A DNA stretch of 31,594 nucleotides. Origin: a virus. The stretch lies in the UHGV virus genome UHGV-0304743. The stretch is one strand, 5' to 3'. Below are positions 15,787-16,063 of the stretch, piece by piece (within the stretch, counting starts at the first letter, position 1; each line of letters begins with the position of its first letter). A program made the translations under genes and the position numbers. The notes below the pieces were generated by a model that searched no databases, had not been told where the DNA came from, and was given only the letters and a program-made list of their open reading frames with translations.

Positions 15787-15918
15787 CAGAAGACCGTTTA
15801 CAGCAAAACTTAAACAATCTATTTCTCCGGTAAAGAAAAGGCGAAGGTTCGATTCCTTCACTCGGCAGATGTCGAGTTGGTGTAATGGTAGCACTTAAGA
15901 TGATAAACAACGGTCTGG
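15787..15918 (+). ncRNA. Candidate Y-RNA-like (YrlA-like) ncRNA: terminal stem CAGAAGACC/GGTCTGG enclosing a permuted tRNA-like domain (T-arm, then acceptor-like hairpin, then D-arm-like)
   Basis: T-arm GAAGGTTCGATTCCTTC (15843-15859); ACTCGGC-agat-GTCGAGT hairpin (15860-15877) where a tRNA would have separated acceptor strands; then TG plus GTGTAATGGTAGCAC D-arm-like (15880-15894); no anticodon arm. Confidence 0.45.
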
Positions 15919-16063
15919 TAATTATCTTTGTAGATAAGTTATTAAGCTTACCTGTGAGTATGCGACCACAAAGGGTGAAAGGGTAAATTCTAGATTTAAA
16001 CCCAAAAAGGCACATCGCTACAGACCTTAAGCAAGTCTGGGTAGCTTATCTACAAAGATAATT
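15916..16063 (+). repeat. 19-bp perfect inverted repeat (AATTATCTTTGTAGATAAG at 15916-15934 and its reverse complement at 16045-16063) enclosing ~110 nt
   Basis: Exact reverse complementarity checked by hand; lies between the Y-RNA-like unit and tRNA-Lys. Confidence 0.6.

Follow-up and report, generated by a model that had tools for sequence, protein, structure and literature searches.

The 31,594-nt stretch UHGV-0304743 (the window, whose full length supplies all coordinates below) belongs to a Felix O1-type phage (Felixounavirus) and carries, within an array of tRNA genes and just upstream of tRNA-Lys(UUU), a perfect 19-bp inverted repeat. Our analysis identifies this repeat as the closing helix, P1, of a conserved structured RNA of about 144 nucleotides, whose stem and inner hairpin covary in at least ten lineages and whose hairpin loop is involved in a pseudoknot. 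We give about an even chance (0.5) to the reading in which this element is a noncoding RNA, encoded on the same strand and likely in the same transcript as the tRNAs, processed, stable and possibly linked to the Ro60-like protein of the phage. Its parts are the following.

15920-16063, plus strand: the element, a structured RNA of about 144 nt with the inverted repeat as its closing stem; folding z-score -6.2
15920-15943, plus strand: 5' strand of P1, the closing stem, containing the perfect 19-nt arm (15920-15938); supported by covariation
15939-15943, plus strand: extension of P1 beyond the perfect arm, with pairs U-G, U-A, A-U, U-G and U-G
15946-15950, plus strand: 5' strand of the pseudoknot, GCUUA, 2 nt past P1, with its partner UAAGC in the P4 loop
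15951-15980, plus strand: variable interior ('P2' region), in which type A and type B sequences differ
15981-16003, plus strand: P3 hairpin, formed by GGGU/ACCC and AAAUU/GAUUU with the loop CUA
16004-16020, plus strand: J3/4, a single-stranded joiner AAAAAGGCACAUCGCUA whose terminal CGCUA or CUCUA is conserved
16021-16039, plus strand: P4 hairpin, made of CAGAC (16021-16025), a 9-nt loop CUUAAGCAA (16026-16034) and GUCUG (16035-16039)
16028-16032, plus strand: 3' strand of the pseudoknot, UAAGC, within the P4 loop
16040-16063, plus strand: 3' strand of P1, containing the perfect 19-nt arm (16045-16063)
16064-16143, plus strand: a 4-nt UAAU spacer followed by tRNA-Lys(UUU) at 16068-16143

The left arm of the repeat, AATTATCTTTGTAGATAAG at 15920-15938, and the right arm, CTTATCTACAAAGATAATT at 16045-16063, are exact reverse complements of each other, with a gap of 106 nt between the two. 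The initial annotation had recognised this perfect repeat, but placed its left arm at 15916-15934, which spells TGGTAATTATCTTTGTAGA and is 4 nt too far left. When G-U pairs are counted the helix reaches 24 bp, pairing 15920-15943 with 16040-16063 around 96 nt. No longer perfect inverted repeat is present in the window, and the maximum obtained in 200 shuffles of the window was 16 bp, the usual value being 11-12 bp. A GTCTGG motif that had also been noticed in the interior lies at 16035-16040, in the 3' strand of the inner hairpin.

Covariation was assessed in an alignment of 23 distinct copies from Felixounavirus, Suspvirus and Mooglevirus, for which RNAalifold retained both P1 and P4. Compensatory changes were found at four columns of P1 (U-A/C-G, C-G/U-A, C-G/G-C and G-C/U-G) and at one column of P4 (G-C/A-U). 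RNAalifold leaves the fifth position of P1, counted from the base, without a partner, and most type-B copies have a mismatch there; outside this column, broken cells amounted to 2/23, all of them at a single column. Across ten lineages, 119 of 120 cells are paired in the outer 12 bp at the base of P1 (up to four pair types per column), as are all 50 cells in the inner 5 bp at its top (up to five pair types) and all 50 cells in P4 (up to four). When the 3' strands were permuted among lineages, the observed pairing of P1 and P4 was never reached in 2000 trials. The sequence of P1 turns over wholly from one lineage to another while complementarity is retained, and P4 occurs in forms as different as CAAACC/GGUUUG, CAGUC/GACUG, AAAGUC/GACUUU, CCGUUC/GAACGG, CAACC/GGUUG and CCAUU/GAUGG. 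Small internal loops interrupt P1 in some lineages, with 2x2 and 3x3 loops in the distant ones. Read in the sense of the plus strand, the juxtapositions in P1 include 32 G-U against 2 A-C. This excess identifies P1 as an RNA helix on the plus strand, that of the tRNAs, and excludes a palindrome acting at the DNA level. A long-stem structured RNA was one of the candidates offered by the initial annotation; the covariation of stem and inner hairpin, the tolerance of G-U on the plus strand only and the compensatory changes in the pseudoknot bear it out.

The P4 loop has 9 nt with the consensus C-Y-U-W-W-G-C-A-A. The 5-8 bases located past the 5' strand of P1, after a linker of 0-4 nt, are complementary to the 3' part of this loop. 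In the lineages below, the strand after P1 is given first and the strand in the P4 loop second.

Type A: GCUUA, UAAGC
Type B and the Yersinia phage: GCUAA, UUAGC
L156: UUGCUUA, UAAGCAA
L157: UUGCUU, AAGCAA
L161: UGCUU, AAGCA
L163: UUGUUCA, UGAACAA
L247: UUGCUUAA, UUAAGCAA, an 8-bp version

All 40 cells in the four core columns of this helix are paired, each column showing two or three pair types, and the summed complementarity within the 14 nt after P1 was matched by none of 20,000 shuffles. As P4 also covaries, we consider both P4 and the loop helix to be real, whether they form together in an H-type pseudoknot or alternate. P4 directly abuts the 3' strand of P1 with zero spacer, and its stem measures 5-6 bp across lineages. 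The linkers of the crossing strands (2-4 nt) and the lack of any spacer between the loop strand, the 3' strand of P4 and the 3' strand of P1 fit a continuous stack of P1, P4 and pseudoknot. The three helices could thus be arranged in a rod of about 35 bp from which P2 and P3 project, a geometry that is inferred.

P1 and P4 are predicted in every type of the element, with z-scores of -4 to -6. Within P3, AUUCUAGAUU (15987-15996) is unchanged across Felixounavirus, Suspvirus and Mooglevirus, and in variant L145 the pairing of P3 is retained through G-U pairs. The minimum-free-energy fold of 15951-15980 is a hairpin that partly overlaps the pseudoknot strand; covariation does not support this hairpin. 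K-turn and T-loop readings of the interior of the element found no consistent support.

The interval from tRNA-Asp to tRNA-Lys that contains the element (428 nt) is 98.6% identical to that of Felix O1, up to 99.8% identical to that of other members, and was found in 252 phage records. Two alleles of the element can be distinguished. Type A is present in the window, in Felix O1 and in most Felixounavirus records, while type B is present in BPSELC-1, Seyj1-1 and JLBYU32 and is also the form seen in Suspvirus and Mooglevirus. Between a type-A and a type-B phage, the 280 nt upstream are 98.6% identical and the element is 73% identical. The two types nonetheless share a fold, with a P1 of 23-24 bp, a variable region, a P3 containing AUUCUAGAUU and a P4 abutting P1. 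Comparison of 15920-16063 in the window with positions 921-1066 of L002 illustrates two sharply different alleles downstream of flanks that are about 98% identical. The type-A interior resembles that of the far more distant L156 and L160, which suggests that alleles have been exchanged by recombination through the conserved stem.

More distant genomes were fetched using the gene at 13395-14810, which encodes the Ro60-like protein described below. They comprise Yersinia phage P778 (53% protein identity) and metagenomic contigs (51-80%), and have a common gene order: DUF5681, the Ro60-like gene, the tRNA array, DUF7217 and the terminase. In all relatives examined, that is Felixounavirus, Suspvirus, Mooglevirus, Yersinia phage P778 and eight metagenomic lineages, the element ends 0-10 nt 5' of tRNA-Lys(UUU). 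It holds this place in all the clade members examined even though the order of the tRNA array differs among them. Each distant genome of this clade with a tRNA-Lys(UUU) gene carries such an element, about 140-166 nt long and closed by a stem of 21-27 bp that is unrelated in sequence. Covariance models R1 and R2 recovered L156 and L160 well (E about 1e-9). The stem being nearly palindromic, a match of the models to L154 (Yersinia phage P778) fell on the incorrect strand. Other search strategies were less specific: a scan of viral contigs with CTACARACCN{2,4}AGCAAG returned 120 loci, mostly by chance, only five of which carried the element, and a descriptor requiring a long stem, an abutting hairpin and a complement to its loop gave hundreds of false positives and was replaced by a scoring of leader helices upstream of every tRNA.

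ARAGORN detects 25 tRNA genes in the window, all on the plus strand. A consensus scan for promoters placed the following site ahead of the array, together with further sigma-70-like promoters at 14829, before the first tRNA, and at 16391.

14920-14949, plus strand: sigma-70-like promoter TTGACA-18-TAAAGT with a TG, ahead of tRNA-Pro

Our scan detected no terminator-like site between 14920 and the element. Given these upstream promoters and the lack of an intervening terminator, the element is probably co-transcribed with the tRNAs in a polycistronic transcript.

The neighbourhood of the element includes a Ro60-like gene and several tRNA-like units that resemble Y RNAs.

13395-14810, plus strand: gene for the Ro60-like protein, 471 amino acids, with DUF2828 and DUF7788 (TROVE-like ring and vWA), 1.1 kb upstream of the element
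15145-15217, 15311-15372, 15700-15773 and 15787-15919, plus strand: four units of the form CAGAAGACC-NNN-UACAGCAA ... NNN-GGUCUGG, scattered among the tRNAs
15787-15919, plus strand: the Y-RNA-like unit nearest the element, with a stem CAGAAGACCG...CGGUCUGG around a T arm, a closed acceptor hairpin and a D arm, arranged as in YrlA

The product of 13395-14810 is homologous to mycobacteriophage proteins annotated as 'Ro-like RNA binding protein', and its AlphaFold model (predicted local distance difference test score 83) has matches among Ro60 structures, that of the Thermus phage phiLo protein included, with E-values of 3e-8 to 8e-6. In phiLo, Ro60 binds RNAs resembling Y RNAs whose genes adjoin its own, and it recruits the host PNPase (PMC12135203). 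In the Felixounavirus Bas63, the Ro60-like gp130 is encoded directly upstream of tRNA genes and is reported in a preprint to be needed against the ppl defence; its authors surmised that some of the downstream 'tRNA genes' are Y RNAs (PMC11482910). The four CAGAAGACC units of the window are likely Y-RNA-like partners of the Ro60-like protein. The unit at 15787-15919 stops 1 nt short of P1 and its closed acceptor covaries in Suspvirus and Mooglevirus. A like unit lies between tRNA-Lys and tRNA-Leu in L157, L158, L162 and L163, where UUUACAGCAA is retained and the stem has changed. The Y-RNA-like units have no match in Rfam.

Two relations between P4 and these neighbours were considered and abandoned. 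The P4 loop might have been a protein-binding motif shared with the UACAGCAA of the Y-RNA-like units; this is weakened by L163, in which the loop has changed together with its partner and the unit has kept UUUACAGCAA. P4 (CAGAC/GUCUG) might also have mimicked the anticodon stem of tRNA-Lys or the GGUCUGG stems, which we reject, as these stems stay the same where P4 varies (Mooglevirus, Suspvirus and other lineages).

We propose that the inverted repeat forms the closing helix of a noncoding RNA carried in the polycistronic tRNA transcript. Cleavage by RNase P at 16067/16068, the 5' end of tRNA-Lys(UUU), would free the 3' end of the element 4 nt past the stem. The 5' end would come from another nuclease, the candidates being RNase III, acting within the long duplex, and RNase E. 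The long end-to-end helix could then shield the RNA from 3' exonucleases, so that it would accumulate as a small stable RNA in the manner of species 1 and 2 of phage T4. In the most speculative step, the RNA would act with the phage's Ro60 ribonucleoprotein system as a partner, or regulate it, a role suggested by its location 1.1 kb downstream of the Ro60-like gene and beside the Y-RNA-like units.

Is the element itself a Y RNA? Criteria for Y RNAs and YrlA include proximity to a Ro60 gene, a CGAA motif, a bulged stem and a tRNA-like domain (PMC4201824). Like the Y RNAs of bacteria and phages (YrlA and YrlB, or Yrl1 and Yrl2 of phiLo), the element lies on the same strand as a Ro60-type gene and within 4 kb of it, belongs to a size class of about 100-150 nt, has paired ends forming a long terminal stem around a structured interior, and sits among tRNA-like sequences. 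It differs from them in that its interior is closed by a pseudoknot, and several further differences weigh against the reading we favour. No GNCGAAN0-1G or CGAA motif occurs anywhere in 15920-16063; some type-B copies carry GCCGAAG in their interior, a feature that is not conserved (GCCGAUGA in others). P1 of the window is an unbroken duplex rather than the stem-bulge-stem of Y RNAs. The element has no tRNA-like domain with T and D arms, and gave no match to the tRNA model at E<=10. The CAGAAGACC...GGUCUGG units are thus better Y-RNA candidates than the element.

Other points tell in the same direction. In Ro60-like phages of other clades (hundreds of phages, 39-46% identity), tRNA-Lys(UUU) is not preceded by such a leader, and the link to Ro60 therefore rests on synteny in one clade. 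The covariance models built on close relatives detect the most distant members only weakly (E 0.08 to 4): L157, L154 and L163 are found with weak scores, and L158, L161 and L162 are not found at all, so that the distant lineages are assigned to the family by where the element lies and how it is built rather than by a model score. L158 and L162 have a complement to the P4 loop elsewhere in the interior instead of beside P1, and in L164 we looked for a pseudoknot partner and found none. P4 and the loop pairing may alternate rather than form simultaneously. Finally, the processing and the stability of the RNA are inferred.

The element is also reminiscent of other RNA classes. The T4 species 1 and 2 RNAs (rnaC and rnaD) are likewise small stable RNAs of about 120-140 nt that lie in a phage tRNA cluster and are co-transcribed and processed with the tRNAs. 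However, they have no sequence or structural similarity to the element: rnaC has a T-arm-like hairpin and no 24-bp closing stem, and T4 has no Ro60-like gene beside them. Homology with these RNAs was rejected, since the folds differ and the covariance model of the element found no match in the T4 locus (L153). With RNase III processing stalks, such as the stems of rRNA operons or the T7 early mRNA sites, the element shares repeats of at least about 20 bp that bracket an RNA to be freed from its precursor; in contrast to them, it brackets an RNA with a conserved pseudoknotted core, and its stalk contains internal loops in distant lineages. The element resembles the H-type pseudoknots of tmRNA, viral tRNA-like structures and telomerase RNA in that the loop of a hairpin is paired to a single strand outside it and both helices covary, but here the pseudoknot caps a 24-bp helix and one of its loops harbours an insertion of about 65 nt (P2 and P3). 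The element had no match in Rfam 15 at E<=1 in a 6.5-kb scan, nor at E<=10 when scanned alone, and in the literature on Felix O1 combined with Y RNA, small RNA or DUF2828 we found no description of the element. The element constitutes an RNA family that had not been described, and it fits best, as a new form, among the small stable RNAs that phages lodge in tRNA clusters and near Ro60 genes.

Among the alternatives, the one that deserves most attention, possible though clearly less probable than a stable RNA, is a cis-acting processing element: an RNase III-type stalk or insulator in the tRNA precursor, which would separate the Y-like RNAs from tRNA-Lys and determine how fast tRNA-Lys(UUU) matures; once excised, the piece would be functionless. 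E. coli RNase III needs about two helical turns (at least 20 bp), and P1 measures 23-27 bp in all lineages. The species 1 RNA of T4 is cut by RNase III in vitro. The element always stops 0-10 nt short of a tRNA, a second long stem (17552-17643) likewise ends (...AAAAAGAUUUAAU) before tRNA-Leu(UAG), another precedes tRNA-Pro in distant relatives, and an A/U-rich sequence is common to the bases of these long stems. However, a stalk has no need of the pseudoknotted core, the 9-nt loop or the invariant AUUCUAGAUU hairpin, and the internal loops (2x2 and 3x3) of distant P1 helices usually restrict or block RNase III cleavage. The conservation of the core thus argues for more than a stalk, and the stalk and the stable RNA are mutually compatible. 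A riboswitch-like RNA or a self-cleaving ribozyme, whose pseudoknot would sense a ligand or cut the precursor beside tRNA-Lys, appears improbable. A compact pseudoknot with conserved loop bases near a processing site does recall folds typical of small ribozymes and riboswitches, but we obtained no match to any Rfam ribozyme or riboswitch even at E<=10 and recognised no conserved catalytic-core motif. Moreover, a riboswitch placed before a tRNA would have no obvious expression platform, and the cut expected from a ribozyme is already supplied by RNase P.

The readings at the DNA or protein level fare worse. The initial annotation had suggested a recombination or integration site, for which the symmetry of the repeat was the sole support; in a broader form, the palindrome could act as a cruciform, a protein-binding site or the target of a homing endonuclease. 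HNH homing-endonuclease genes are indeed inserted in these tRNA arrays, and the sharply distinct interiors of types A and B between nearly identical flanks resemble a cassette exchange. A function in DNA is still very improbable, and the recombination-site reading is rejected: pairing is kept through G-U, which is not a DNA pair, it is complementarity and not the sequence of the repeats that is conserved, and covarying inner helices and a pseudoknot would be meaningless in duplex DNA. The possibility that relatives carry the same sequence without its symmetry had also been raised; they show the opposite, a different sequence with the symmetry retained. As for the proposed miniature inverted-repeat transposable element inserted between the Y-RNA-like unit and tRNA-Lys, the terminal inverted repeats around a short noncoding interior are in its favour. 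However, the element occupies one place per record across 213 phage genomes, has no second copy in the window and no match in 5,426 complete E. coli genomes. Its flanks (...GGTCTGGT|AATT...AATT|TAATGG) show no direct duplication, and no relative has an empty site, the same position being occupied by diverged homologues. Copy number and orthologous conservation thus refute the transposon, to which we attach next to no probability. The interior had also been described as lacking an open reading frame (ORF). In fact an 85-aa ORF starting with ATG overlaps the element on the minus strand (15758-16015); it is ORF94 of Felix O1 (AF320576), and several GenBank records label it 'unknown' or 'hypothetical protein'. 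It is absent or truncated in type-A variants with indels of 1-3 nt (L063, L072 and L143) and in all type-B genomes, and it overlaps the tRNA-like unit on the opposite strand. Since this ORF is not conserved it is not a gene, and a coding function is just as improbable as a transposon. An intrinsic terminator was rejected: our terminator scan made no call at the element, the base of the stem is all A/U, its arms are 100 nt apart and a tRNA begins 4 nt further on.

Other structures were observed in these tRNA arrays. The second long-stem hairpin of the window (17552-17643, plus strand), of 24-26 bp, ends right before tRNA-Leu(UAG) at 17644, and its conservation extends to L156, L159 and L160. 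Within this hairpin UUGUUGCU is retained, which is exactly complementary to AGCAACAA of the unit at 15311-15372. In distant relatives, a stem of at least 25 bp around about 130 nt lies upstream of tRNA-Pro, the first tRNA (L154, 5647-5838; L157, about 7842-8025; and L161, L163, L158 and L162), a place occupied by promoters in the window. Two short hairpins (GAGGGCUAUUUAGCCCCUC and CUUAAAGAGUUCUUACGAGUAUUCUUUAAAG) follow tRNA-Asp immediately at 15645-15699 (plus strand) and are conserved in Felixounavirus, Suspvirus and Mooglevirus. In the region 16318-16622 (plus strand), the Rfam models of permuted tmRNA (31.7 bits, E 0.0012) and tmRNA (16.3 bits) gave weak matches below threshold, and 16624-16702 (plus strand) matches the tRNA model with 31.7 bits (gathering score 29) and is not called by ARAGORN. 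In Yersinia phage P778, positions 7010-7150 of L154 form a tRNA-like structure with a 7-bp acceptor (GCGGGUG/CACCUGC), a T arm and an insertion of about 70 nt, for which ARAGORN makes no call.

Felix O1-type phages are widely used in typing and therapy and as models (Bas63), and their tRNA region has so far been annotated with only tRNAs and spurious small ORFs. The element is now defined as a conserved structured RNA, beside the first clear candidates for the Y RNAs postulated for gp130. One may speculate, more doubtfully than for the processing stalk, that it represents a new class of Ro60-system RNA, a pseudoknot-capped rod acting with the Ro60-like protein and the Y-like RNAs as a scaffold, decoy or regulator that guards or repairs the supply of tRNA-Lys(UUU) or blunts ppl or nucleases directed at tRNA-Lys. 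The tRNA-Lys(UUU) is the target of several host anticodon nucleases, and its fixed coupling to the element would in that case be functional and not incidental. If the element does belong to the Ro60 system, it would provide a handle on phage Ro60 ribonucleoproteins and their tie to tRNA arrays; should it be no more than a processing device, it would still show how a precursor of 25 tRNAs is matured. Either way, the element deserves an entry in RNA family databases, and the 'hypothetical protein' annotations that overlap it ought to be withdrawn.

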